A DNA stretch of 64,000 nucleotides, from positions 7,023 through 71,022 of the IMG/VR virus record IMGVR_UViG_3300049857_000028; one strand, given 5' to 3'. Of this stretch, positions 15,426 through 55,709 are shown piece after piece. The notes below the pieces were generated by a model. The model saw nothing but the letters and a program-made list of their open reading frames with translations, ran no database searches and was not told the origin of the DNA. Each line of letters starts with the position of its first letter. Positions within the stretch are counted from its first letter, which is position 1. Made by a program: the position numbers and the translations under genes. The DNA comes from a virus. Taxonomy: Duplodnaviria; Caudoviricetes.

Positions 15426-16106
15426 TTGAAAGTTGAATACATCACCCATATGGGCGATGATCTTATGGTCGTCGATGCAGCTAGAGTTTCATTTGACAAG
15501 AAAAGTGAATGGGAATCTGATTTTAACGAAGAAGTTTTAAAAGAATCGGATAAAAAGCTTATTCAATATTTAGCTGAAAATGGTCATTGGACTCCTTTTG
15601 CTCATCCTCAAATTCAAGTTCGCATGACTGTTCCTATTTTTGTAGCTAATCAATTAAAAAGACATCAGATAGGGTTAGCTGTAAACGAAGTTTCACGTCG
15701 ATATGTAGATGATGAGCCTGAATTTTATATCCCTACGGAATGGAGAGCCAGACCGGATAAGTCTATTAAACAAGGGAGTTCTGATGAGATTATTACTGAA
15801 TTTATCTCTGGCCCAAATCAATATATAACATTAAGTGAAGGGTATGAGAGTAGTATTATGGAAGCTTTGAATTGTTATCAAGGAATGATCGAAGCTGGTG
15901 TAGCCCCTGAAATGGCTAGAATGGTTCTTCCTCAATCTATGTTTACGTCTTGGATCTGGACGGGTTCATTAATGGCTTTTTTACGAATTTATCAACAGCG
16001 CTCAGATCCCCATGCTCAAAAAGAATCTCAAGAAATAGCACGTCAGTTAAAGGAAATCATTCAGCCTTTATTTCCTGTTTCATGGGCTGCTTGGTTTGAA
16101 TGGTAA
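15426..16106 (+). CDS. thyX: FAD-dependent thymidylate synthase
   Basis: AARVSF, HWTPF, QLKRH, NEVSRRY, ARMVLP, HAQKE. Confidence 0.97.
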   Translation: MKVEYITHMGDDLMVVDAARVSFDKKSEWESDFNEEVLKESDKKLIQYLAENGHWTPFAHPQIQVRMTVPIFVANQLKRHQIGLAVNEVSRRYVDDEPEFYIPTEWRARPDKSIKQGSSDEIITEFISGPNQYITLSEGYESSIMEALNCYQGMIEAGVAPEMARMVLPQSMFTSWIWTGSLMAFLRIYQQRSDPHAQKESQEIARQLKEIIQPLFPVSWAAWFEW

Positions 16107-16118
16107 AGGAGAATAAAA

Positions 16119-16217
16119 ATGGCTAAAAAGAAACAAAGAAAACCGGCTGGAAAGCAAAATGGTAAATCAGTACCACCTCCACCGAAACCTACGAATAAAG
16201 GGAAAAAGAAAAGATGA
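16119..16217 (+). CDS. Very small Lys/Pro-rich protein (32 aa)
   Basis: MAKKKQRKPAGKQNGKSVPPPPKPTNKGKKKR, with AAGGAG RBS. Confidence 0.5.
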   Translation: MAKKKQRKPAGKQNGKSVPPPPKPTNKGKKKR

Positions 16218-16501
16218 CACTCAGAGACTACCCATCAGCTATTTGCCATGATTGCGGTATGAAGTATGGTAGACGAGCACCTCATATTGCTTGCTATCAT
16301 ACTTCGGAATGTGATTTATGCGGTCAAACCGCTAGCCTTACTGAACCTAGAGATTATGGTCATTTAAATGAGAAGAAAATTGAAAAAGAGTTAAAAATTA
16401 AGTTTAAAAAACTTGAGCTTACTCAAGAGCTTAAGGATTTATCCTTTATGATGAATTATATGTTAGAATCTCCGCAAATAAAGCGAAGAATAGAGGAATA
16501 A
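16214..16501 (+). CDS. Hypothetical Zn-finger protein
   Basis: CHDC and CDLC motifs. Confidence 0.55.
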   Translation: MTLRDYPSAICHDCGMKYGRRAPHIACYHTSECDLCGQTASLTEPRDYGHLNEKKIEKELKIKFKKLELTQELKDLSFMMNYMLESPQIKRRIEE

Positions 16502-16508
16502 TCTCCGC

Positions 16509-16754
16509 ATGGAACTAGCTGTAATAACAATGGTTTTAACTTTTTTAGGGCATAAGATATCTGATCAACTGGATCATAAACATGAGAAGGTTGAAATGAT
16601 GTCTAGGCTATGTTTTGAAAAGAATGAATGTGAGCCTTTGAAGCAGTATCTAATGCGTAATAAACTAAAATCTGTAGAACAGGATAAGCTAAATTTAGAG
16701 GAACCTCCTAGACAGGTGATAACACCTCTAGATGAGATAAAAGAGTTACCTTAA
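16509..16754 (+). CDS. Hypothetical protein
   Basis: 81-aa ORF. Confidence 0.55.
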   Translation: MELAVITMVLTFLGHKISDQLDHKHEKVEMMSRLCFEKNECEPLKQYLMRNKLKSVEQDKLNLEEPPRQVITPLDEIKELP

Positions 16755-16756
16755 TC

Positions 16757-19660
16757 TTGGCCCTAAATAGAGACATAATTGAAGAGATTAAACGGGCGAA
16801 TCCCATTGAAGATGTGATTCAGCAGTTTATTGATACCCACTCTCTCCCTGTAAATACTAACGGGAGTGGTATATTTACACATCACCATTTCTGGAAGGAT
16901 GACCCTAATCCGGGAACCGCTCTTTGGGTAACTCCTTCAAACCAGCTTTGGTCCTGCTTTTCGTGTAAACAAGGCGGGGATGTTATCCACCTTGTTCAAT
17001 CCTTCTTATATGGACCGGACTATGAACCTAGAAACTACGGTCAACTTGTGCAATCTTTGCACTGGTTGGCTGATCGGGTAGGAATACCTTTTGAAGCTCC
17101 TGAAGAGGAGGATACAGACCTTGCGGAACTTCGTATTTTATATTCTATCTATGGCGATTTCATTGATTATTGTGTTAAAAATTCTTTTTCAATAAATAAA
17201 GCTCAGGAAATCTATGAATTAATCGATCAAAGATATCCTTTGAATCAAGAAACTATTGAGAAATTTAGAATCTGTTATTTTGATAGGAAATGGACTCAAC
17301 CGTTTTACAATAAACTTTTAGAAAAATATACGCACGAGGAATTAATTGGATCAGGCCTATTCCAACAATATAAAGAGAATATAAACTGTATATTCCAAAA
17401 TAGGCTGATTATTCCCTACATCCAGAACGGGGATGTGGTCTATATGATTGGTAGAGAAACAGTTCACTCATCTTGGGAGGATGAAAATGGTATTAAAAAG
17501 AATTATGATGGCGGTAAAAAGTTCAAGAAATTATCAGTATATGATGAATCTAAAGTATATACTCACCACATATCGAAGCATGTTAGGAATGACTATATTT
17601 TTGGTTCAGACTTCATTAAGAAAGGACAGGACCTGCTCATTACTGAAGGGATTGGCGACTGCTTGGTCTTACTTCAAGCTGGCTACAATGCTATTAGTCC
17701 GGTCACTGTTTCCTTCAAGAACGAAATGCTCGAACCCGTTTCAAGCAAGCTTAAACGAGTAAGACAAATCTATATATGTAATGATAATGAGCTTTCTGAA
17801 GCGGGTGCTAAAGGCGCTCTCAGGATGTATGATTTCTTTCTTTCTAAGGGGATGGATGCTAAAGTGGTGGAACTTCCTTTAGAGGATGGGGAAACCCATA
17901 AAGATGTAGCTGAATACTTTCAAAAACATTCTGTAGAAGACTTTAAGGAGCTTTTGGAATCCTCAAAGTCTGCTTTAGATATGCAAATAGAAACCATTAC
18001 ACCCGCTTCACATAAATTAGATGTTCAAAAGGTTTGGGAGAAGATTCTGAATTTGGACTCCTTTGAACGGGATATGAAAGCTGAATCTCTTGCAAAGAAA
18101 CTCGGTAAACGAGTTAAAGCCCTAAAAGAGTGGTTTGGAAGTAGCGCATCTGGACCACTCACTTCTAAAATGGTTTTTGAAGCTCCGGCTAGGTTGATTC
18201 CAGCTCAAGATTTTAAACTGGATGAGTTCGGAACGAAACGAGCTTACTCATGCGTCTGGGTTCCGGTTCAAATTGATTCGTTAGGAAATGATCCAACTAT
18301 TGAGAACCATCCGCATTTAATTGAAATGGAGTATGGGGTTGAAGGTAAATTAGACAAAAAGATTATTGATTTAAACGAAACCCCGATTAATCCGTTAGAT
18401 ATGCAAAGAATCCCTGATGAAGCTCTTACTTTTGATCGGTGGAGATTAGATACGAAATACCCTTACTCAGTGGGAAATTTTATCTCAGCTAAGTCTAATT
18501 TAAAACCGGATGTAGATGCCGTATTCCATTCTCTATATGAGATTTTTGATAATTATTTTTGGTATCCTAGGGAATCGGAAAAATTAATTCAAACACTATA
18601 TATTATGCTTTCATATTTCTATCAAATGTTTTCCGCTGTTCCCGGTTTGCATATGACGGGACCTAAAGATTCTGGTAAAACAAATGCAATGAAGATAGCC
18701 CTTTGGACTGCTTTTAACGCTTTTAAAGTGGTGTCTGTTAAAGAATCTTTCTTGTTCAGAACGGCTCATGCTACTTCAGGGGTTTTTATCGTAGATGAAG
18801 CCGAAAAATTAACTGGAGAAGAGAAAATTGGTAATTGGGATGATGTAATGACTCTCCTTCGGGCTAGATACAAGCAAGGGGATTGTGTCCCACGTCAACA
18901 TAAAGATCCAGAGGGTAAATTCATCACAATTATGTACGACACATATGGGCCTACTTATGTAGGTTCTATTTCCCATTTAGAAGATGCATTAGCATCTCGT
19001 ATGATTATTATTGAATGTTTAACTAAAGATGATTTGTCTGATTTGAAGAATTTCACAAATGATGAGTGGGAGATTCAAGTTAAGTGCGCCGACATCAAAG
19101 ATAAAATGTATACTTTAATGATGCTGGATTTCCCTAGGGTAATGGCTGCTCATGAGATAATTAAAAAAGATCCTAGAGTTCAAAAGATTAGAAATAGAGA
19201 GTGGGAGAAATGGAGACCACTCTTAACCATTGCTCAATGGATTGATATGAGTGCTAAGCATACGAATAAAAAGCTTGTTGATCAGCTTATCGAAATTCAA
19301 GAATATAAACAGCAACTGCGTAAAAATGCTGAATCCTCAAATAATAAAGAACTTATTCTGCTTGAGATTATGCTTGATATCCTTGTGAATCGAGAAGGCT
19401 CTTCTCATAATTTCAAGGTTTTAGATATTGGGGATGGAAATCAATCGGTTGCTGCCGATCAATTCTATAATAAGATTAACGAGAAACTTAGAGCCATGTC
19501 TATTCAAAGACAATTTGATATGCAATCTAAATCCCTGTTTGATAATGCCTTAAGGAAGAACCAAATCTGGCAAGTTGGGGATGGAAAAATTGAAAAAGGA
19601 CGTATCATTATAAATACTATTAGATTAGAAGAAGCAATTAATAGGTTGAAATTAGGATGA
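16757..19660 (+). CDS. DnaG-type primase fused to a P-loop helicase/ATPase domain
   Basis: Zn-binding WSCFSC...GGDVI, RLIIP, Toprim TEGIGD and DND, P-loop GPKDSGKT, Walker B IVDEAE. Confidence 0.9.
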   Translation: MALNRDIIEEIKRANPIEDVIQQFIDTHSLPVNTNGSGIFTHHHFWKDDPNPGTALWVTPSNQLWSCFSCKQGGDVIHLVQSFLYGPDYEPRNYGQLVQSLHWLADRVGIPFEAPEEEDTDLAELRILYSIYGDFIDYCVKNSFSINKAQEIYELIDQRYPLNQETIEKFRICYFDRKWTQPFYNKLLEKYTHEELIGSGLFQQYKENINCIFQNRLIIPYIQNGDVVYMIGRETVHSSWEDENGIKKNYDGGKKFKKLSVYDESKVYTHHISKHVRNDYIFGSDFIKKGQDLLITEGIGDCLVLLQAGYNAISPVTVSFKNEMLEPVSSKLKRVRQIYICNDNELSEAGAKGALRMYDFFLSKGMDAKVVELPLEDGETHKDVAEYFQKHSVEDFKELLESSKSALDMQIETITPASHKLDVQKVWEKILNLDSFERDMKAESLAKKLGKRVKALKEWFGSSASGPLTSKMVFEAPARLIPAQDFKLDEFGTKRAYSCVWVPVQIDSLGNDPTIENHPHLIEMEYGVEGKLDKKIIDLNETPINPLDMQRIPDEALTFDRWRLDTKYPYSVGNFISAKSNLKPDVDAVFHSLYEIFDNYFWYPRESEKLIQTLYIMLSYFYQMFSAVPGLHMTGPKDSGKTNAMKIALWTAFNAFKVVSVKESFLFRTAHATSGVFIVDEAEKLTGEEKIGNWDDVMTLLRARYKQGDCVPRQHKDPEGKFITIMYDTYGPTYVGSISHLEDALASRMIIIECLTKDDLSDLKNFTNDEWEIQVKCADIKDKMYTLMMLDFPRVMAAHEIIKKDPRVQKIRNREWEKWRPLLTIAQWIDMSAKHTNKKLVDQLIEIQEYKQQLRKNAESSNNKELILLEIMLDILVNREGSSHNFKVLDIGDGNQSVAADQFYNKINEKLRAMSIQRQFDMQSKSLFDNALRKNQIWQVGDGKIEKGRIIINTIRLEEAINRLKLG

Positions 19661-19814
19661 TAAAAAGATTTAAAAGTATTATAAAAAATGAATTTTACTG
19701 GTTTTTAAGTTGTTTATTTGTGGACATATCTGAATATACTAATAAATTAGCTTTGAGATTTGATAATCAAATATCTAATCATTATTTTGATTTTATTGAT
19801 AAAGAGGAGGAATA

Positions 19815-22013
19815 ATGTTTCTATCGGATTCCTTTATAGATGAGTATAAAAATAAAGAAGTTCCCTTTGGGCCTTTAGGGTATGTTACATATAAACGAAC
19901 TTATGCTAGACCTGTTGAAGGTGAAAATAGAACTGAAGAATGGTATGAAACTTGCCGTCGAGTTATTGAAGGTAATCTTTTACTTGAAGTCAATCAAACT
20001 AAAGAATTAAATATCCCTTGTAGGCTTACAAAAAGTGAAGCTGAAATAATGTATGATGATATGTTTCATATGAGATGGCTTCCTCCGGGTAGAGGTCTTT
20101 GGTGCTCCGGTACAGGGATTGGGTTTGAGAATGGAGCGGCTTTGACGAACTGCTATTTCGTAGAAATCAAACCGGTGAATGGTAAAATTTCCTACCCATT
20201 CCAATTCGCTATGGATATGCTGATGCTTGGAGCTGGGGTAGGTTTCTCTGTAGCAAATGATTTAGTTTCTAAAATATCAAAAGTAATGAATAAAGTTAAC
20301 CTATATGTTGTTTGCGATCCTACCCATAGGGATTTTAATTATCTCAATGTGGATGAGATGCCTAGAGGAACCAAGCAATATATTGAAGTATGGGATTCGA
20401 GAGAGGGTTGGGTCTATGCTTTGAAAAAGGTGATAGATTCGGCCTTCCTCTCTAAAACCAAGAATCCTAAGACACTGGTGATTGATGTTTCTTTGGTACG
20501 GCCTACTGGAGAATCTATTAAATCATTTGGGGGTAAAGCTTCTGGCCCTGCTCCGCTGGTTGAAATGCTAAGATTCATCAACAAATTGTTGAATAGTCGG
20601 GTTGACTCTAAACTTTCAGATGTTGATTGTACGGATATTATGAACGTTATTGGCCGATGTGTAGTAGCTGGTAATGTTAGACGTTCGGCCATGCTAGCTT
20701 TAGGGGACGCTTCTTCAGAAGCCTTTAGAACAATGAAAACTTATGACCATGAAGCGGTTGACAAGTTAAACAATTTCATTCAAAATGATCTGAGATCTCT
20801 GAGAAAGCTAACGGATACTGAATTTGAGGCTCTTTACAATGAAAAGAGTAAATCAGAGATGGTTAATCACCATCGTTGGGCAAGCAATAATTCTATTCTT
20901 ATTACTGATGATTTTGATAGTAGTCTTATTGTAGACTCTATAATTAAAAATGGTGAACCGGGATTTCTAAACCTCAATCTAATTCAGAATTTTGGTAGGT
21001 TAGTTGATGGGGGAGATAAGGTAGATGTTGCTACAGGAACTAACCCTTGTGGGGAAGTTTCATTAGAATCTTATGAGCCATGCAATCTATCTGAAATTTT
21101 CCCATCAAATTGCTCTAGTTGGTCCGAAATTCTACGAGTAGCCGAGTGGGCTTACAAATACTCTAAACGAGTTACTTTGAGTAGCTATGGATGGGAAGAA
21201 ACTCGTCGAATTGTTGAAAAGAATCGTCGTATTGGAGTATCTCTTTCTGGTATTCAAGATTGGGTATTTGAAATGAAGGATGAGAATAATTATGCATTCG
21301 AAACCTTTGAGGAACATTTTAGTAATCTGCTGGATGAACTCTATATTCATATCTCTGTTATGGATTCTTTGTATTCAGAATATCTTCAAATCAATGAATC
21401 TATTAAACTAACAACAGTTAAGCCTAGTGGAACAATTTCTCTGCTTGCTGGGGTATCCCAAGGGATGCATTGGCCTTATGCACCTTACTATATTCGCTCA
21501 ATCCAGTTTCAAGAGAATGATCCGATGGTGAAATATTGTGAGTCACTAGGCTTTAGAACTAGACCTTCGGTTCAAACCCCAAAGGCTATTCTAGTAGAAT
21601 TTCCTATTAAAGATCCTAATGCTGAAAACTCTAAGTTTAAATCTGCTGGGGATGTTTCCGCAAAGGATCAACTAGAATTTCAGTTTCTTTTGCAGCAAAA
21701 CTGGTCTGATAATCAAGTATCATGTACCGTGTCATTTAATGAATCTGAACATGGGGAACTGCCTGAGTTGATAAATGAATATTCAAAGAAGCTCAAATCA
21801 ACCTCCATGCTTCCTTATTTTGACTTAGGGAGACAAGGTTCCGATATCAAAAAGTATTATCCTGATCTTCCTATGGAGCCTATTTCAGCTAAAGAATATG
21901 AGAAGCGTATTACAGAGATCAAAGAATGGCCTAAACGTTTGGTTGAAGATGGTGATAATTTTGAAGTATTAAATAATGAAGAATGCAAAGGTGGAATATG
22001 CCCGATAAAGTAA
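19815..22013 (+). CDS. nrdJ: Class II (adenosylcobalamin-dependent) ribonucleotide reductase, monomeric RTPR type
   Basis: LPPGRGLW, ALTNCYF, VAGNVRRSA, TNPCGE, TTVKPSGT, C-terminal CKGGICPIK. Confidence 0.95.
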   Translation: MFLSDSFIDEYKNKEVPFGPLGYVTYKRTYARPVEGENRTEEWYETCRRVIEGNLLLEVNQTKELNIPCRLTKSEAEIMYDDMFHMRWLPPGRGLWCSGTGIGFENGAALTNCYFVEIKPVNGKISYPFQFAMDMLMLGAGVGFSVANDLVSKISKVMNKVNLYVVCDPTHRDFNYLNVDEMPRGTKQYIEVWDSREGWVYALKKVIDSAFLSKTKNPKTLVIDVSLVRPTGESIKSFGGKASGPAPLVEMLRFINKLLNSRVDSKLSDVDCTDIMNVIGRCVVAGNVRRSAMLALGDASSEAFRTMKTYDHEAVDKLNNFIQNDLRSLRKLTDTEFEALYNEKSKSEMVNHHRWASNNSILITDDFDSSLIVDSIIKNGEPGFLNLNLIQNFGRLVDGGDKVDVATGTNPCGEVSLESYEPCNLSEIFPSNCSSWSEILRVAEWAYKYSKRVTLSSYGWEETRRIVEKNRRIGVSLSGIQDWVFEMKDENNYAFETFEEHFSNLLDELYIHISVMDSLYSEYLQINESIKLTTVKPSGTISLLAGVSQGMHWPYAPYYIRSIQFQENDPMVKYCESLGFRTRPSVQTPKAILVEFPIKDPNAENSKFKSAGDVSAKDQLEFQFLLQQNWSDNQVSCTVSFNESEHGELPELINEYSKKLKSTSMLPYFDLGRQGSDIKKYYPDLPMEPISAKEYEKRITEIKEWPKRLVEDGDNFEVLNNEECKGGICPIK

Positions 22014-22534
22014 AAAAATATTATACTTGTACCGGGGATAACGGTACTACTTTATTAAACGGTAATCGTGTAGGAAAAGATAATAAAGAGATTGAACTAA
22101 TCGGGGATATTGACGAGTTGAGTGCTAATATTGGTATGTGTATTATTACCTTAGCTTCGGCTCATAGGGAAAATGCGGAATATGAGATTATTAGATTGCA
22201 ACATATTAGAAAAATATTGTATGAAATCTCGTCAAGAATATATGAGGGCAATTTAGTAGTATCCACTCATTATGTTGATTATGTAGAGAAGACTATAGAA
22301 TTTATCAGTTACCATAGATTAACTGAGTTTAAAATAGATAATTTTCTTACTTTTGATGATTCTTTTAGTTCTGCCCAACTAAATATCGCAAGAACAGTCT
22401 GTAGAAGAACTGAACGTAGCTTTGTAAAAGTATTTCCATTTTATGCTACAAATGCTTTCTTCAACCGGTTAAGCTCCCTTCTCTTCGTTATGGCAGTAGC
22501 TTTCTCCCCAAATAAAGAGACTTTTAAAGTATAA
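21998..22534 (+). CDS. pduO: PduO-type ATP:cob(I)alamin adenosyltransferase
   Basis: YTCTGDNGTT...GNRVGKD...GDIDELSANIG, ARTVCRRTER, NRLSSLLF. Confidence 0.85.
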   Translation: MPDKVKKYYTCTGDNGTTLLNGNRVGKDNKEIELIGDIDELSANIGMCIITLASAHRENAEYEIIRLQHIRKILYEISSRIYEGNLVVSTHYVDYVEKTIEFISYHRLTEFKIDNFLTFDDSFSSAQLNIARTVCRRTERSFVKVFPFYATNAFFNRLSSLLFVMAVAFSPNKETFKV

Positions 22535-45946: not shown

Positions 45947-47575
45947 TTAAGGCAACCCTGCCGCTGTTTCGATATAAGTAGCAATAATTTGGTTGGCGGC
46001 TGTAGTTGGATGGGTTTTATCTGCTTGATAATAAGTTCCATCACTCGTATCACTAAAAGCTGCATCTGGAGCAATATCCACAATAAAGGCTCCTGATGGC
46101 GGAGTCCAAGTTGTTATTAATGTGTTCAATGCTGCGGTTGCCGTATCGTAAGATCCAGCTCCAAACTTAGGTATAGTAAGAACATATACTTCATCAAAAC
46201 CATCTGCCAATGCTTTAGTTGTCATATCTTGGATATTTTGGAAAATGGTAGCATTTGATACCGCCGCTACAATATCATTTGTTCCTGAATATATGACTAA
46301 TCTAGAAGTTTTATCGTGGTATGAAATCCAATTAGCTGAATAATTCTTATTTACTCTATCCAAATTTTGTGTAGTTGTTTGACCTATGATAGCATCATTA
46401 TGAATTTCATAAGTCGAAAGTCCTAAATCTGCTCCGATTAAACTAGGCATAGAGGTTTGACCGTCTAAAACTGCTTGGGCTTCTGCTGTACGGGAATCTC
46501 CCATGAAAGCCCAACTATGCTTATAAGCGTATATATTTACTTGATCGTTTATGTAATGCCTAATATTTCTTTGTTTCACAAAATCTATAGCACTTTGAGT
46601 AGAACCGGCTAAGAATGCTACAGGTCCAAGTTGACCGTTTAAACGATAGGATGAAGTTTGCAGACCGCCTAAAATAATATTAGTGATACTATTTCCAAAA
46701 TTAGCTGCACTTCCAGTAGTACTTGCGGGAAGTAATTCTGCTCCATTAAAGTAGATTAAAGATTTCCCGTCTGTCTTATCCCATCTATGTTCTAATATAC
46801 CTAGAAAAGGTACTGAATTAGACGTATTAGATCTTGTTACTAATGTGCCAGATGGCTTACCACTGAAAGCCAAAGTTTGAGTTCCAGTCATGTAAGCTTC
46901 TATACCAGTATTTATAGTAGCCGTACCTAATTGATAGAAACCTAATGTCCCATCATCCGCATCAACATGAACAGCGAATACAGAAACGAAATGTCCTTGA
47001 GTCTGAAAATCTACTACTCCAGATGTTTTTTCAAGCATTTGGAGTGTACCTGAAAAATCAATAATAGGTTTACTATTAAAATTACTATCTGAGGATACAT
47101 AAGTTGGATAATTTGCAGTTGCTGTTAAAGTATGCCCATTTCCTGATAAATCTTCATAACTATTCACATTTACACCTGATGAATATCCAATAGTTGATCT
47201 AATAGGACTCCAATAGGAATGTAGACCTGCTCCTATATATTCTCTTGGGTCAGAATTTAAATACCATTCAATATTTAAGCTGGTGGAGACTGTACCGCCA
47301 GTTGGTAAATCTATTAGTTTAGTATTTGAGACTGTTTGTAAGGCTTCCCATGAAATATTTTTAGTATTAGAAGCTTCTTGTAAAGCTTCCCATTCTATCA
47401 TTTGAGTGTTAGAAGCTTCTTGTAGAGCTTCCCATTCAATTAATTGTGTATTAGCGGCTTCTTGTAAAGCTTCCCATTCAATTAATTGGGTATTAGAAAC
47501 AGACATAGGAGGGCTTGAAAATCCTCCATTTGTCGAGTTTAAACTCGATACACCTATAAAAATACCAAATCTCAC
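45947..47575 (-). CDS. Putative head spike/fibre with W-repeats, LamG-like region and SGNH hydrolase domain
   Basis: GDSRT, SGTND and DKTHP SGNH blocks; 14-aa EWEALQ repeats. Confidence 0.7.
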   Translation of the reverse strand: MRFGIFIGVSSLNSTNGGFSSPPMSVSNTQLIEWEALQEAANTQLIEWEALQEASNTQMIEWEALQEASNTKNISWEALQTVSNTKLIDLPTGGTVSTSLNIEWYLNSDPREYIGAGLHSYWSPIRSTIGYSSGVNVNSYEDLSGNGHTLTATANYPTYVSSDSNFNSKPIIDFSGTLQMLEKTSGVVDFQTQGHFVSVFAVHVDADDGTLGFYQLGTATINTGIEAYMTGTQTLAFSGKPSGTLVTRSNTSNSVPFLGILEHRWDKTDGKSLIYFNGAELLPASTTGSAANFGNSITNIILGGLQTSSYRLNGQLGPVAFLAGSTQSAIDFVKQRNIRHYINDQVNIYAYKHSWAFMGDSRTAEAQAVLDGQTSMPSLIGADLGLSTYEIHNDAIIGQTTTQNLDRVNKNYSANWISYHDKTSRLVIYSGTNDIVAAVSNATIFQNIQDMTTKALADGFDEVYVLTIPKFGAGSYDTATAALNTLITTWTPPSGAFIVDIAPDAAFSDTSDGTYYQADKTHPTTAANQIIATYIETAAGLP

Positions 47576-49727: not shown

Positions 49728-50357
49728 TCAGAAGATCAATTCTTCACTAGAATAACCGGATTCTACTCCACTCTTAAAGTGTACCACATCTGTTGACTTA
49801 ATAGCAAGTGCTCCCGCCCATACAAAATCATCTGAACCTCTATCTGGATGCTTTAAAGTTCGAGGATCAAGTTCGTATAACTCCCGTCTAAAAATCTTAT
49901 GATACTGGTGATCGGGATTAAATTCGATTAATTTTTCCTGTAAAACAACTCTAAAAGCTTGTATCATATCCCTTTTAAGCGGTAAAGTAAAGATAACACC
50001 CTCAATCCTAGGGCCAAAATATTCCTGAAGATATTCAAAAACTGCTTTATGGGAGGTGATATCTACAGTTATTTTAGAGAAATGGTATCTCTTGTCCAGT
50101 TCGATAATTTCTCTAGCTTGGTTTAAATAAGTTACGTTTTTAATCCCATCTGGATTAATTGTCAGATCTCTTTTCATTCGGCATTTTAATGTAGGATTTG
50201 GATTGTCAATTGTAGGGGTTTCTTTTGCTAATACGAAAAAAGCACTTCTATCCGAAGTTTCAGCAGGGTCAAACCCCGCCCATACTCCCGGATGAGTAAG
50301 TTCGTCTCTCAAGTGAATTCTTAATTCGCTTGTTAAAGCTTTACTGAGACTGTCCAT
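49728..50357 (-). CDS. terL: Terminase large subunit, stand-alone C-terminal RNase H-like nuclease domain
   Basis: AGFDPAETSDRSAF, TVDIT, HPDRGSDDFVWAGALA. Confidence 0.8.
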   Translation of the reverse strand: MDSLSKALTSELRIHLRDELTHPGVWAGFDPAETSDRSAFFVLAKETPTIDNPNPTLKCRMKRDLTINPDGIKNVTYLNQAREIIELDKRYHFSKITVDITSHKAVFEYLQEYFGPRIEGVIFTLPLKRDMIQAFRVVLQEKLIEFNPDHQYHKIFRRELYELDPRTLKHPDRGSDDFVWAGALAIKSTDVVHFKSGVESGYSSEELIF

Positions 50358-51159
50358 TCATCTTTTCGGAATACCCTGCAAACATAATAGCAAAGGCACT
50401 CCCTCCACTTGTTCCAGACCATCTAACGGGGATATAATTTGATTCTACAAGAGCTCTAACGACTCCTATATGAGCTCCTGATCGGATACCTCCTCCTGAT
50501 AGAGCCATGCAAATTGGTGTAGGTTTATCATTATCTATTAACCCGAAATATTTTAATTGTTCCCTTGTTTGGAGGTATGCAAATTTTATCATCTCCTCTT
50601 TTTCAGATTTTTTTAAGCCAAATTCAACTGAAGATATATCAGATATCTGAGGGTAGAATGTACGAACCCTATCCCCATATAAAATTTTAGCAGTTTGATA
50701 ACTCTCAAAAGATTTAAACTCCCACGAATAGAATAATTTTTCAATCCGACCTTTTGGAGTTTTTCTATAAGGCATCATCAATTGACTTACAAAAATAGGG
50801 AGAGGATCGTTTTGCCACTGAGCTATGCAGGGGTTTTCGGATACCCCTCCGTCTATATACTCATCTTTATCTATAAAGCCGGGAATAGCTATAGATCGAG
50901 ATATAAGTTCTCCATATCCCGATTTTTTAAAATCTTCTAGAGAGTATATCTCTTCAATATCTCTTTTAGTATTTACACAATTGATCCAAACATTATCAAC
51001 AATTGGTAATCCAAGTTTATTAAACCATTTGATAAATCGTTCGGTTTTTAATTCGAAAAGTGTTGCTTGAGTCTTAAAAAGGCCCGGAAGTGAGAACAAA
51101 TTGGCAAAATTTGTCTCTAGAAAAACCTTCTCTACTTGGTCAATCACTTCCTTTTTCAT
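50341..51159 (-). CDS. Patatin-like phospholipase, circularly permuted
   Basis: DGG at mid-protein, while ALSGGGIRSG and SGTSGG lie in the last ~60 aa. Confidence 0.85.
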   Translation of the reverse strand: MKKEVIDQVEKVFLETNFANLFSLPGLFKTQATLFELKTERFIKWFNKLGLPIVDNVWINCVNTKRDIEEIYSLEDFKKSGYGELISRSIAIPGFIDKDEYIDGGVSENPCIAQWQNDPLPIFVSQLMMPYRKTPKGRIEKLFYSWEFKSFESYQTAKILYGDRVRTFYPQISDISSVEFGLKKSEKEEMIKFAYLQTREQLKYFGLIDNDKPTPICMALSGGGIRSGAHIGVVRALVESNYIPVRWSGTSGGSAFAIMFAGYSEKMNGQSQ

Positions 51160-52257
51160 CTAGATATCATACAAAACTTCTGAGTATACTTCGGAGACAT
51201 TCAGATAGCATGAAATAACTCCGCTATCCGGTAATTCGCTAATAGTATGCCCAGATCCCATATCAATACTTAAGTCAAGTTGAACCCCAAAACTTAAGAA
51301 AGGTTTAATCGGTGATGTAGTATGATATTGCTGATCTCCGTTTGTTGTAGTATTTAAATTACCTGAATTTACTATTTGATTTGCTGGTCCACCATAACCC
51401 ATCTTAACAACGGAGGCAGGTAGAGTTAGTCCTAAACCCCCATGTACAATAAAGCCCATATTTACTATTGTCATATCAGGAGGAATTACAATTGCCAATG
51501 TATCTACTTGATTTGATGGAGTTGTATTTGCTTTAATATAATCACCAGTAAATTTATATTTAATCCATCTGTTCAAACCTGCAACGTTTATACCCGTTAA
51601 ACCCGCAATATCAGAGGTATTTTGAGCGATATCTGAAGTGTTTTGAGCGATATCTGAAGTGTTTTGGGCTACATCCGCTATAACTTGATCTAAAGCCTCT
51701 CCTTGCAGTTCAATAAAATCATCTAATTGATCTTGAACATTTATAACGGATTCTTGAAGAAGACCATTTATATCTTGATTAATTTCAAAATCTGATCCCG
51801 AATTATCCATATTAGCTTCGGCAGTAATGCCAGATGCTTCAGACGCTCTACCTTCATTCACGATAAGGTCAGGAGAATCTACAATTTTAAATTCTTTAAT
51901 TTGAGATCCGTTTAAAAGAACTGATCTAGCTCTAACTTTATACACTCCAGCCTCTGCAAAAAGACTTGCCGGAAAGGTGTAGTAATATCTGGAATTATCT
52001 GGAGTATCTACAGTTGCTGAATGGACAGGTACTAATGAGCCTGATCCTTGAGAACCTGTTGAACCTGTTCCGGCTGCTAATGCCCCATGTAAAAGAGTGA
52101 ATTCTACATAATCAACATCTCCAGTTGATCCTGCAAAACTATTAGTTACGACTGCTTCTAAATCAGTTGTATTGGTATTTAAAAATGGAGATTCAGGGCC
52201 ACTTAGCTCAAGCGTAGTTGTACTTGTAGATTGTATAAGAGTAGGTAGTAATGACAT
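51160..52257 (-). CDS. Putative virion protein, paralog 1 (beta-sandwich, heptad coil, C-terminal domain)
   Basis: DVDYVEF, GVYKVRARS, DIAQNTS heptads. Confidence 0.6.
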   Translation of the reverse strand: MSLLPTLIQSTSTTTLELSGPESPFLNTNTTDLEAVVTNSFAGSTGDVDYVEFTLLHGALAAGTGSTGSQGSGSLVPVHSATVDTPDNSRYYYTFPASLFAEAGVYKVRARSVLLNGSQIKEFKIVDSPDLIVNEGRASEASGITAEANMDNSGSDFEINQDINGLLQESVINVQDQLDDFIELQGEALDQVIADVAQNTSDIAQNTSDIAQNTSDIAGLTGINVAGLNRWIKYKFTGDYIKANTTPSNQVDTLAIVIPPDMTIVNMGFIVHGGLGLTLPASVVKMGYGGPANQIVNSGNLNTTTNGDQQYHTTSPIKPFLSFGVQLDLSIDMGSGHTISELPDSGVISCYLNVSEVYSEVLYDI

Positions 52258-52268
52258 CTTCTTTATCC

Positions 52269-53297
52269 TTATTCTGGAATACTAAAACACATTCCAAGTC
52301 TTATACTCATTGTATCAGAGATATCTTCTAAATGTATTCCCACACCTGTTACGTTAACTATCAAAGGAACTGTCGGCCCAAATTCTAAAATTTCATTATT
52401 ATAGGTAAATCCGGTTAGGTTTGTATTTTTTAAGTCAAAATTTAAAATAGGGTAAGTTTCTACTAAAGAATTGTAAAAATCTACCGTTGTCGTTGTACTA
52501 GGGCCGGTGTCAAAACTAACAATCACTATAGTTAATCCAGATCGTCTAGGATTCCCTGCCCCATTTCCATACTCTTCGGGAGCATAGGAGAATTCAATTG
52601 TTCCATTCGTAGCGGTTGCGATATCCACACTAGCATCTGTTAAAGCAGTTTTTAATTGAGCTCCCGTTATAGTTACTTCTTTCCAGACAGGGACTCCAAA
52701 AGGAATAGAAGTATTAGTTTGCAAATCCGTAATATCACTTTGAATAGTAGTGATATCACTTTGAATAGTAGTGATATCTCCTTGAATATCTGAAATATCC
52801 GAATTAATATCGCTTAATTGAGCGCTAAATCCATCAAAATTGGCTTCAATAACATTTAAAAAATTATCTGGGAATATGTTATTCTCATCCGATTTATCCC
52901 TATCAAGCATAATGAAAGGTTCGGATTCACCAATAATAAAGTCTACTATTTTCCCTTCGAAATCTTCAGTTATAGCTCTGGCTCTAATTTTATACATTCC
53001 GGGGTTTTTATACCAGATATTATCTAAATTATTATCCCCTGTAGTAATTGAAACTTGATACCAACCTAAAGCGTGAGGATCAGTCAATTTCTGAGTATAT
53101 AAAGGGATTAAAAAACCTCTCTCAGGAAAGTTCGGATCATACACCGGACTATGAAGTACTTGAAATTCAACATAATCTACATCTACAGGATTATCTTCAA
53201 AGAAAGTGTAGATATCAAAGATAACGTTTTGAAAGTTATCTTTATAAAAAGGTATATCAGGTAATGCTACCTGTACATTACAAAAATCTACAGACAT
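52269..53297 (-). CDS. Putative virion protein, paralog 2
   Basis: DVDYVEF, GMYKIRARA, DITTIQS heptads. Confidence 0.6.
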   Translation of the reverse strand: MSVDFCNVQVALPDIPFYKDNFQNVIFDIYTFFEDNPVDVDYVEFQVLHSPVYDPNFPERGFLIPLYTQKLTDPHALGWYQVSITTGDNNLDNIWYKNPGMYKIRARAITEDFEGKIVDFIIGESEPFIMLDRDKSDENNIFPDNFLNVIEANFDGFSAQLSDINSDISDIQGDITTIQSDITTIQSDITDLQTNTSIPFGVPVWKEVTITGAQLKTALTDASVDIATATNGTIEFSYAPEEYGNGAGNPRRSGLTIVIVSFDTGPSTTTTVDFYNSLVETYPILNFDLKNTNLTGFTYNNEILEFGPTVPLIVNVTGVGIHLEDISDTMSIRLGMCFSIPE

Positions 53298-53371
53298 TTT
53301 AAATCCTTCTTATAATTTGAGCTGCAAAACTTAGTTTTAACCTAAGTAATGCAGCTCATTTTAAAATAATA

Positions 53372-54172
53372 TTAGAGGGAAGCGGGAACTACAACGGCCC
53401 ACATAACTTTAATCATTGTGGAATCCGCTAATTCAGAAACAGTATCTCCAGTACCCATATCGATTCTAAGATTCAAATCGGAATCGGAAGTAGGGAGGGG
53501 TACAAAAGAAGCGCTGTTTGCTACAGCAGCTACTGTATCAAGATCAGCAGAAGCTACCACATTACTTGCGCTTGAACCAGAACCTAGTTTAGCAACAGCG
53601 TCTGTATCAGCATCAGCTACTTCGATAGAAAGAGCTCCACCTAAGAGTACAGAGCCTTCAGCCAGATCAGCTAATTTCATGTTAGAAGCTTGTTGAGAAG
53701 CATCTGCTACATGAGCTTTAATCTGAGCTCCTGAGAGGGACATTGATTTCCAAACTACGCTACCTGAAGCAGCTTCATCGGAAAGTTCATTATTTGAATC
53801 AGCTTGATTTTTATCAAGAACAGAGAATTGAGCGGATTCAGCTAAAGCGAAACTAGATACAACAGGACCTGTTAAAGCTTCACCACGAACTCGGACTTGA
53901 TATCTTCCGGGTTCAGCAAAATCAGATGCGGGGAAGGTATGGGAATAATGGCCTGTAGAACTAGAAGTATCCTCAACACCTTGGGATTTAGCGATTAAAA
54001 GACCGCCTTCACCGCCAACAGCAGCGTAAAGAAGTTCAAAAACAACTCTATCCACATCGACATCGCTTCCTTCAAATTGAGAAACAGCCGAGACTGCTAG
54101 AGAAAGCATATTACTCTTGTATAGAGGACTAGGTAAACTAGATAGGGAAATGGAAAGTGAATCAATTGCCAT
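53372..54172 (-). CDS. Putative virion protein, paralog 3 (no coil)
   Basis: DVDRVVF, GRYQVRVRG, WKSMSLSGAQIK. Confidence 0.6.
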   Translation of the reverse strand: MAIDSLSISLSSLPSPLYKSNMLSLAVSAVSQFEGSDVDVDRVVFELLYAAVGGEGGLLIAKSQGVEDTSSSTGHYSHTFPASDFAEPGRYQVRVRGEALTGPVVSSFALAESAQFSVLDKNQADSNNELSDEAASGSVVWKSMSLSGAQIKAHVADASQQASNMKLADLAEGSVLLGGALSIEVADADTDAVAKLGSGSSASNVVASADLDTVAAVANSASFVPLPTSDSDLNLRIDMGTGDTVSELADSTMIKVMWAVVVPASL

Positions 54173-54186
54173 TTAAAAACTCCTTC

Positions 54187-54720
54187 TTAAATCGTGTCAC
54201 CAGTAATTTGCATTGTGTAATTGTTTGTTTGGGCCGTTGAACCGACGGAAACAGTTCTTTTAAATGCGATATGAACAGCATCTCCGGGGGCGATTGATGT
54301 TGGAAGAGCCAAACCTCCTCCGGGGATAGTTGCGAAAGTAATAGGTCCACCATCTGTTGGAGCCGTATTCTCATCAGCACCGGCAGTAATTGTACTATTT
54401 ACAGCGGCTGATACATAAGCTTGTAGAGCGTTATCACCAAAAGAAGATGCAGAAATTTTTAAAACAGCATTATCTAGAGTTGAACTTGAAGCATCGGCCA
54501 AAGGGCTATCCAATTTAACAGCGATTACACGATAATCCGCTGTTTGGCTAGTATCTACGTTACCGGCAGAGTGATTTGTACCTGTAATATTATCCCAGAG
54601 ATTGTTTAAACCTGACCCAATTTGAGTTGTGGATCTTACTCCACCTAAGGAAGCATAAGGGTTTGTATTCCCCGACCCACCCGTTAAATAAAATTTGATA
54701 TCGGATGTTTGAACTGCCAT
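54187..54720 (-). CDS. Conserved-type phage virion protein
   Basis: DIKFYLTGGSGNTNPYASLGG...NLWD..DYRVI; GGAGGAG RBS before MAVQTS. Confidence 0.6.
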   Translation of the reverse strand: MAVQTSDIKFYLTGGSGNTNPYASLGGVRSTTQIGSGLNNLWDNITGTNHSAGNVDTSQTADYRVIAVKLDSPLADASSSTLDNAVLKISASSFGDNALQAYVSAAVNSTITAGADENTAPTDGGPITFATIPGGGLALPTSIAPGDAVHIAFKRTVSVGSTAQTNNYTMQITGDTI

Positions 54721-54755
54721 TTTAATCTCCTCCAATTATTTAAATAATAACATAT

Positions 54756-55709
54756 TTAAAACCATTCGTCAAAGGTTCCGGTTGAACACGCATCTAATAA
54801 CGAATAAGGAAAAAGTGAATGACTTTCATCCACTGGAATGCACATATATTCTTCATTAAAGATCTCGATAGGTAAATCGTGTCTCAATTGATCTAAATCG
54901 GGAGGAGGGTTTACTGTAATTGGATATTTTAGTACTTTCCACCCTTTTACATTTTCCTCCGATAGCCTGTCTTGAGTGATATCATACCAATGATTTTTTC
55001 CTTTAAATGAGCTAAATAAAACAATTTTACCGCCTGTTCTAGATACGAAAGGGAAACAAGCAGCTTGCATTTCGGGCCAATTCGGCATTTTCGCTATCTC
55101 ATCCCCAATCAAAAGATCAGCAGTATAACCTGAAGCGGTATCCGGGTTAGCGGGGACGACGACAATACGGGACCCATTATTAAATTCTATTTCTTCAGCA
55201 TTTTCATGTTTTATTTGGAAATCCATCTCCAATCCGGGTTGGTCATATCTTTTTTTAACCGTACTCCAGTCTACTTCTAAACCACTTAAAGCTCCTAGTG
55301 TGGAAATCATAGATTTTGGGTCTATATTACCATCCTCTTCAGAATCAACATATAGCTTATTCTCGTTCTTTCCCACTCTCCTAAATATCTTTTTGATGGA
55401 AAAATTACGTTTAGTTAAAAGCTCTTTGACTTGCCTTTCCCCGGTAGAAATGATCAAAACCGTTTGATTAGGTATACATAAAGCCCACGATAGGGCTAAA
55501 ACAGCGATGCAAACTGATTTACCAATTTGCCGGGAAGCCACAACGGCTACTCGGCTGTAATACATCACGCATCTCAAAATTTCGCATTGGTAATCGAATA
55601 AACTAATCCCTAGTATGGATGTTGCGATTATAACTAAGGCGTTCCAAGATTCACTGGATAACAAATAAGGATCAGTTCGTTCGTTTACAAAATCTTTATA
55701 TAATTTCAC
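54756..55709 (-). CDS. terL: Terminase large subunit, stand-alone N-terminal ATPase domain
   Basis: ASRQIGKS (Walker A), LIGDE (Walker B), FSSFKG, and FNEEYMC at the end of the domain. Confidence 0.9.
   Translation of the reverse strand: MKLYKDFVNERTDPYLLSSESWNALVIIATSILGISLFDYQCEILRCVMYYSRVAVVASRQIGKSVCIAVLALSWALCIPNQTVLIISTGERQVKELLTKRNFSIKKIFRRVGKNENKLYVDSEEDGNIDPKSMISTLGALSGLEVDWSTVKKRYDQPGLEMDFQIKHENAEEIEFNNGSRIVVVPANPDTASGYTADLLIGDEIAKMPNWPEMQAACFPFVSRTGGKIVLFSSFKGKNHWYDITQDRLSEENVKGWKVLKYPITVNPPPDLDQLRHDLPIEIFNEEYMCIPVDESHSLFPYSLLDACSTGTFDEWF

Follow-up and report, generated by a model that had tools for sequence, protein, structure and literature searches.

A circularly permuted patatin-like hydrolase encoded in the terminase gap of a tailed virus

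How does a gene lying between the two separated domains of a large terminase come to encode a patatin-like protein with its catalytic motifs in reversed order, and what could such a protein do for the virus? The gene in question was found in the window analyzed here, a stretch of 64 kb taken from a virus record that is 71,022 bp long and carries direct terminal repeats, in which the late operon runs on the minus strand. The translation of the open reading frame was read directly. In the protein, the DGG motif (residue 103) comes first, GGGxR (222) follows and GxSxG (249) stands last, which departs from the canonical patatin order of GGGxR, GxSxG and DGG. The sequence ALSGGGIRSG occupies residues 219-228 of the 272-aa product. 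The motifs, their positions and their reversed order agreed in each point with what an earlier note on this DNA had claimed. In the alignment of the protein family, residues D103, G104, G105, S221, G223, G224 and S251 are invariant, and at least 90% of the sequences retain G222, R226, T250, G252 and G253. D103-G-G was aligned with the DGG of PlpD, VipD and the canonical relative P0019, and the oxyanion loop was aligned near the start of the PF01734 model and to residues 5-52 of PlpD. The non-canonical order is that of a rotated chain and does not reflect the loss of a domain. The coordinates of the gene, its motifs and the flanking terminase genes are collected in Table 1.

Table 1. Positions in the window of the permuted patatin-like gene, its motifs and the adjoining terminase genes.
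Feature	Position	Strand	Basis or remark
Stand-alone TerL nuclease-domain gene	49728..50357	-	phrog_5909, phrog_5713, phrog_2; conserved in relatives
Overlap of the patatin 3′ end with the TerL-nuclease start	50341..50357	-	17 nt
Circularly permuted patatin-like hydrolase gene	50341..51159	-	ORF, 272 aa; PF01734 44 bits; family alignment; AF2 model
Nucleophile elbow G249-T-S251-G-G253	codons 50401..50415	-	about 20 (19-21) residues ahead of the stop
Oxyanion-hole glycine loop G222-G223-G224-I225-R226, near the C-terminus	codons 50482..50496	-	after strand 214-220
Variable linker, ~aa 205-213, bridging the canonical C- and N-termini	50521..50547	-	least conserved internal stretch
Catalytic Asp motif D103-G104-G105, N-terminal half	codons 50845..50853	-	invariant in 18/18 sequences
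Stand-alone TerL ATPase-domain gene, other side of the gap	54756..55709	-	PF03237 E 3.3e-16; phrog_7579, phrog_2; conserved synteny

The relation of the protein to the patatin family was assayed with profile searches. The PF01734 model matched it in two stretches with an E value of 3.8e-11 and a score well over the gathering threshold of 27.7 bits; the best stretch aligned residues 219-262 with model positions 2-46. A six-frame search of the genome gave 36.9 bits and placed model positions 154-185 upstream of positions 2-58 on the coding strand. Split matches in inverted order, which the earlier note had proposed as a check, were therefore obtained in both the protein and the six-frame searches. 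Because linear profile models recognise no more than a 45-residue piece of such a protein, the corresponding genes are scored too low or annotated as partial. In the case of PlpD, the family profile aligned query residues 214-261 with chain residues 5-52 and query residues 83-123 with chain residues 163-208, and in the case of VipD three stretches were aligned in circular (rotated) order. A profile-profile comparison with hhalign matched positions 8-209 of the family profile (A1) to positions 57-286 of A3, a 289-column profile of canonical relatives, with a probability of 100 and an E value of 1.2e-40. In a rotation test, the protein was rotated by a script at every possible point, and each product was aligned locally to six canonical relatives. 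The score peaked for rotation at aa 197-220. For P0019, it increased from 171 to 267, the alignment then ran from end to end, and shuffled sequences gave 33 ± 5.

The fold was predicted with AF2 on the basis of the family alignment. A single compact domain was obtained, with a mean pLDDT of 91.4 and a pTM of 0.91; an independent model from the ESM Atlas has a pTM of 0.86. The C-terminal unit of the AF2 model is composed of a strand (214-220), a helix (224-239), a strand (242-249) and a helix (252-270), all with pLDDT of 94-98, and the nucleophile elbow is placed between the last two of these elements. This unit corresponds to the strand, GGG loop, helix, strand, nucleophile elbow and helix that open canonical patatins. 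The model comprises no targeting or attachment domain beyond the catalytic one, and neither a signal peptide nor a membrane segment is visible in the sequence of the window protein (P0001).

The model was then compared with solved structures by means of a sequential structure aligner, in a wide search among 48,161 solved-chain representatives and in a Foldseek-seeded search. The best chains, i.e., the ten best in the wide search (Z of at least 5.4) and the 13 best in the seeded one, were patatin, cPLA2 or iPLA2 enzymes. Of these 13, only one or two were matched beyond model residues 1 to ~215 (in 12 of them the match ended by residue ~216), and the matched residues correspond to the part after their own nucleophile. 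The match to Pat17 (Z 11.1) was in agreement with the patatin alpha/beta fold. The patatin domain of PlpD from Pseudomonas aeruginosa (5FQU/5FYA) was aligned over 183-188 residues with Z of 13.4-13.5 and an rmsd of 3.0-3.4 Å; the alignment of model residues 1-208 to PlpD 70-311 gave Z 13.5 for 188 aa. The two chains are rotated relative to each other: model residues 1 to ~214 correspond to PlpD 70-311 and residues 214-261 to PlpD 5-52. As a control, the canonical relative P0019 was modelled (pLDDT 87.8). Its model shows the same secondary-structure elements, rotated in order, and was aligned end to end with PlpD over 239 aa at Z 26.1. A colinear permuted structure was found neither in BFVD nor in the ESM Atlas nor in the PDB (48,161 solved-chain representatives), where the matches were partial and canonical. 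The Pfam, profile, profile-profile, rotation, AF2 and structure-alignment results all bear out the proposed permutation, and the gene product is a genuine circular permutant of the patatin domain. Judging from the confidence of the fold (pTM 0.91) and the conservation of the motifs, the Ser251-Asp103 dyad is probably assembled in the predicted structure.

Next, we asked whether the permuted gene has been maintained in other genomes. Seventeen relatives of 240-278 aa with 51-67% identity were collected from JGI, ENA, Logan and NCBI assemblies. Sixteen of them are intact (268-278 aa), and all 16, which come from independent assemblies, have the rotated order. Variation within the family is greatest in the linker at ~205-213 and at both termini. 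Between loci, dN was 0.27-0.50 and dS was 1.9-3.6 or saturated, and where the ratio was computable, dN/dS was 0.10-0.20. Together with the invariant catalytic residues and the confident fold, this data supports the view that selection has kept the gene with its catalytic set intact. In one member, P0017, from a 6-kb ENA contig, the sequence departs from that of the family beyond about residue 225 and the GGG and GTSGG motifs are missing, which is consistent with a frameshift, caused either by decay or by a sequencing error. This sequence is what could be cited if the gene were taken for a non-catalytic remnant, for two gene fragments fused together or for an artefact of assembly. However, such an origin is extremely improbable in view of the 16 other members, which are intact in assemblies from all four sources and have invariant catalytic residues, and of the dN/dS values and the confident single-domain fold. 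Neither chance nor an assembly artefact, the latter named by the earlier note as a refuting outcome, therefore explains the rotated order.

The nearest sequence relatives of the permuted proteins are canonical patatins that matched the family profile with E values from 8.5e-34 to 2e-26. P0019, P0020, P0021 and their kin align end to end with the phage protein after rotation; they differ from it by the canonical N-to-C order and by not being located in a terminase gap. For the tree, the permuted proteins were first rotated back. All 17 intact members, the window protein among them, fell into one clade (SH-aLRT 100), which was nested with P0019 and the P0020/P0021 set with a support of 96. A single permuted clade indicates one founding event. 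The rotated order would thus have arisen once, long ago, among small canonical patatins of a phage-borne lineage and been kept under purifying selection since. Circular permutations usually arise by tandem duplication, in-frame fusion and the loss of the outer parts, and this would be the simplest route also in the case of the patatin. The route is taken from general knowledge because no intermediate was found: a search for longer forms of 477-2000 aa, in which two patatins stand in tandem or the patatin is fused to TerL, returned none, which is weak evidence.

A different origin had been proposed in the earlier note, namely that the open reading frame was excised as a circle of ~790 bp, reopened at the sequence AAAAG and reinserted beside the TerL nuclease gene. 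We confirmed that copies of AAAAG lie close to the two ends of the gene (nt 5-9 and 794-798), and a circular intermediate would also yield a short linker at aa 205-213 between the old termini. However, AAAAG occurs five times in the patatin gene, at least one common 5-mer was found in 79% of shuffled end pairs, and the gene ends of homologues have 5-mers other than AAAAG in common, so the microhomology does not rise above chance level. Moreover, dS is saturated between family members, which means that no nucleotide footprint of the founding event can survive, and the event is older than the whole clade, so a nucleotide-level relic is not possible. For these reasons, we regard the circle as very unlikely. 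The sequence obtained by joining the end of the gene to its start had been described as a natural patatin continuation. It does fall in the right loop, but the join is not clean: relative to P0019, the native termini form an insertion of ~12 residues in the loop after the nucleophile helix, and the exact junction is therefore not recoverable.

The family profile was also run against 1.84 billion cluster representatives and matched 5480 patatins. Among the best 150 of these, two were colinear over the full length, and both are members of the permuted family; the other matches in the best 150 showed the canonical offset, with query residues 6-200 on ~50-290 and query residues 210-261 on ~2-60. 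The patatin gene region had no counterpart at the DNA or protein level among 50,697 phage records, which were searched for cultured relatives, and no prophage copy was present in 185,579 species genomes. In the literature searched, we found no description of a permuted patatin, cPLA2 or FabD-like fold. As far as we could find, this is apparently the first time that a natural circular permutation has been documented for the patatin/cPLA2-type lipase fold. Its clear canonical sister group makes it a clean case of an enzyme that tolerates a nucleophile elbow moved to the extreme C-terminus. Natural circular permutants are known in other enzyme families, exemplified by C5 DNA methyltransferases and the permuted papain-like NlpC/P60 proteins. 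The event is of the same kind there, since the motif order is rotated and the fold is retained, but the fold is a different one.

The phage protein resembles PlpD and the RssA-like small patatins in its three catalytic motifs and its single-domain size. With PlpD it shares ~12% identity, and it differs in having neither a POTRA domain nor a barrel partner. The CapV/CapE effectors of CBASS (9JEH, 8ZR9 and 9IOM) resemble it in the patatin fold (Z 10.6-11.4) and in the motifs of the Ser-Asp dyad; unlike the phage protein, they are host-encoded and signal-activated and keep the canonical order. The named patatin subfamilies CapV, RssA, VpdC and DS2_1 were considered as possible assignments and rejected, because all scored far under the curated cut-offs. 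The window protein gave no match to NF041079 (CBASS cGAMP-activated phospholipase CapV) and, at E of 0.01 or less, none to the RssA model NF007623. The canonical relatives reached 20-26 bits with NF041079 (cut-off 200), and P0019 reached 29.5 bits with NF007623 (cut-off 272).

The surroundings of the gene were compared with those in related loci. The earlier note had placed the gene in the terminase gap, with its stop overlapping the start of the nuclease gene, and this arrangement proved to be correct. In the relatives, the patatin and nuclease genes either are separated by 2 nt or overlap by 1 or 11 nt. The conserved order is TerL-ATPase, gp182 (~180 aa), one or more Ig-like genes, the permuted patatin, TerL-nuclease, gp123 (~125 aa), portal, gp251-like and MCP. 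The full order was found in four complete related loci, and the part from the patatin to the MCP in a shorter fifth (L015). Between gp182 and the patatin, four loci have one to three variable genes, as a rule with an Ig-like one among them, and the permuted patatin is always the last gene of the gap. Identity between loci is 53-67% for the patatin and 53-63% for the nuclease gene; diverging at about the rate of the nuclease, the patatin behaves as a core gene. The gene can thus be flagged as one for a conserved, probably active lipase that belongs to the core of a head and packaging module whose terminase is split, in a lineage without cultured members.

Neither the patatin gene nor the nuclease gene is preceded by a Shine-Dalgarno motif, which is present in 30 of the 49 genes checked, and the patatin ATG directly follows the stop codon of the upstream gene (TAG ATG). 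Combined with the overlap with the nuclease gene, these features imply that the patatin would be synthesized late, by translational coupling with the head and packaging proteins.

Several other features of the gap were observed. The large terminase (49728-55709) is divided at its domain boundary, and the same gap layout is present in the four related loci that span the gap. Protein and profile scans with the TerL-nuclease returned only the already known locus. In the case of the portal gene, only distant phage relatives with at most 31% identity were matched among the 50,697 phage records; the best of them, MW202476, has an intact TerL beside its portal gene. The 9-mer GAYGAATGG, which occurs at both terminase breakpoints of the window, was considered as a possible mark of the division and rejected, since it is not present in L001, L003, L006 or L012; only the EW codons at the ATPase-end breakpoint recur in relatives. 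At 51160-54172, three paralogues (266, 342 and 365 aa) with a common N-terminal Ig-like part are encoded, and two of them carry heptad-like repeats (DIAQNTS/DITTIQS). Since the relatives have only one or two Ig-like genes, an expansion took place inside the terminase gap of the window.

Taken together, the product is probably a single-domain patatin-fold Ser-Asp acyl hydrolase with a permuted chain of one ancient origin, expressed late and in a coupled manner. The chain opens with the segment that canonically comes after the nucleophile helix and continues with the strands bearing the catalytic Asp (D103 of DGG) and with the C-terminal helices. The variable linker (~aa 205-213) leads to strand beta1, the GGGxR loop (222-226), a helix and strand beta2, followed by the GTSGG elbow (S251) and the final helix, with which the chain ends. 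The motifs and the predicted fold point to Ser-Asp acyl hydrolase activity, in which catalysis would be carried out by S251 and D103 with an oxyanion hole composed of G222-G224 and R226. The substrate would presumably be a glycerolipid ester.

What such an activity may serve was considered in view of the gene context. Our leading guess, a tentative one, is that the enzyme may attack the host membrane late in infection as a helper of lysis. This role is favoured because of the position in the late operon, the failure to match endolysin families and the precedent of phage WO. Ten common endolysin Pfam families gave no match in the whole 71-kb genome. Two of them, GH108 and GH19, were also blank in all control genomes and are therefore uninformative, and because about half of the genes of this genome match nothing, the missing endolysin families are weak evidence. 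For phage WO, a patatin-based lytic cassette was proposed (PMC9203015). There, likewise, the patatin is phage-encoded, a lysis role is proposed and no endolysin is recognisable. The WO patatin differs in its canonical order, in its location upstream of the tail module with a holin-like gene as neighbour, and in belonging to an unrelated phage group (PMC9203015).

The context of the canonical relatives was examined in the same way. Three of them (P0019, P0020 and P0021) have a readable context, and all three lie in early or accessory regions of phage-like contigs of 53-133 kb, which argues against an ancestral role in lysis or in the virion. P0019, the nearest of them, is located directly downstream of a gene of the Gad2 family (PF26128, anti-Gabija; L007 7119-8789, 53-kb contig), possibly in an anti-defence neighbourhood. 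P0021 adjoins a 5′-3′ exonuclease and P0020 adjoins Dam. An active enzyme could instead serve host takeover or counter-defence, for example by remodelling lipids or by removing a lipid-linked or membrane-bound component of host defence, and its place in the late operon would then be incidental. Besides the Gad2-family neighbour of P0019, the position of P0020 and P0021 among early, replication and methylase genes and the weak matches of the canonical relatives to models of CBASS and other anti-phage phospholipases are in line with such a role. On the other hand, in all six loci the permuted gene lies among late head and packaging genes, to which it is translationally coupled, the window protein matched no PADLOC model, including those of phospholipase effectors, and no mechanism is evident. 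We consider takeover or counter-defence possible yet rather unlikely; owing to the early and accessory context of the canonical relatives, it stays close behind the lysis role.

A third role would be that of a virion-associated enzyme, packaged or attached to the head, that helps to breach the host membrane at entry. The gene does lie inside a structural operon, beside Ig-like and fibre-like genes of the terminase gap, and other esterase domains (GDSL) are present on structural-module proteins of the same lineage. Nevertheless, the protein shows no similarity to any PHROG structural family, its canonical relatives are found outside structural modules, and its model contains only the catalytic domain, so that we hold a role at entry to be improbable.

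The rotation itself might not be neutral, in which case the lipase would have gained a new mode of control, with its dose or activity tied to DNA packaging, and would act as a factor of lysis timing or of membrane-linked packaging. If so, the cut after the nucleophile helix would leave two terminal helices unconstrained at the entrance to the active site, and the tie to packaging would follow from the obligatory coupling to a separate TerL nuclease. We give this idea only a slight chance of being correct.

Outside the gap, some further genes of the window deserve mention. The gene at 45947-47575, located between the portal and gp251-like genes ahead of the capsid gene, encodes a 542-aa protein. 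Tandem repeats (NTQLIEWEALQEA) are found in its N-terminal part, and a GDSL/SGNH esterase domain (PF13472, E 2.5e-11) in its C-terminal part. In L003, a GDSL protein is encoded inside the terminase gap instead. No tRNA gene was found in the 64-kb window. A set of genes for nucleotide supply is located at 15426-22534 and contains ThyX (15426-16106) and a ribonucleotide reductase of class II type (19815-22013). Directly after the reductase lies a gene for cobalamin adenosyltransferase (21983-22534; PF01923, E 1.2e-30), the product of which would supply the cofactor of the reductase.
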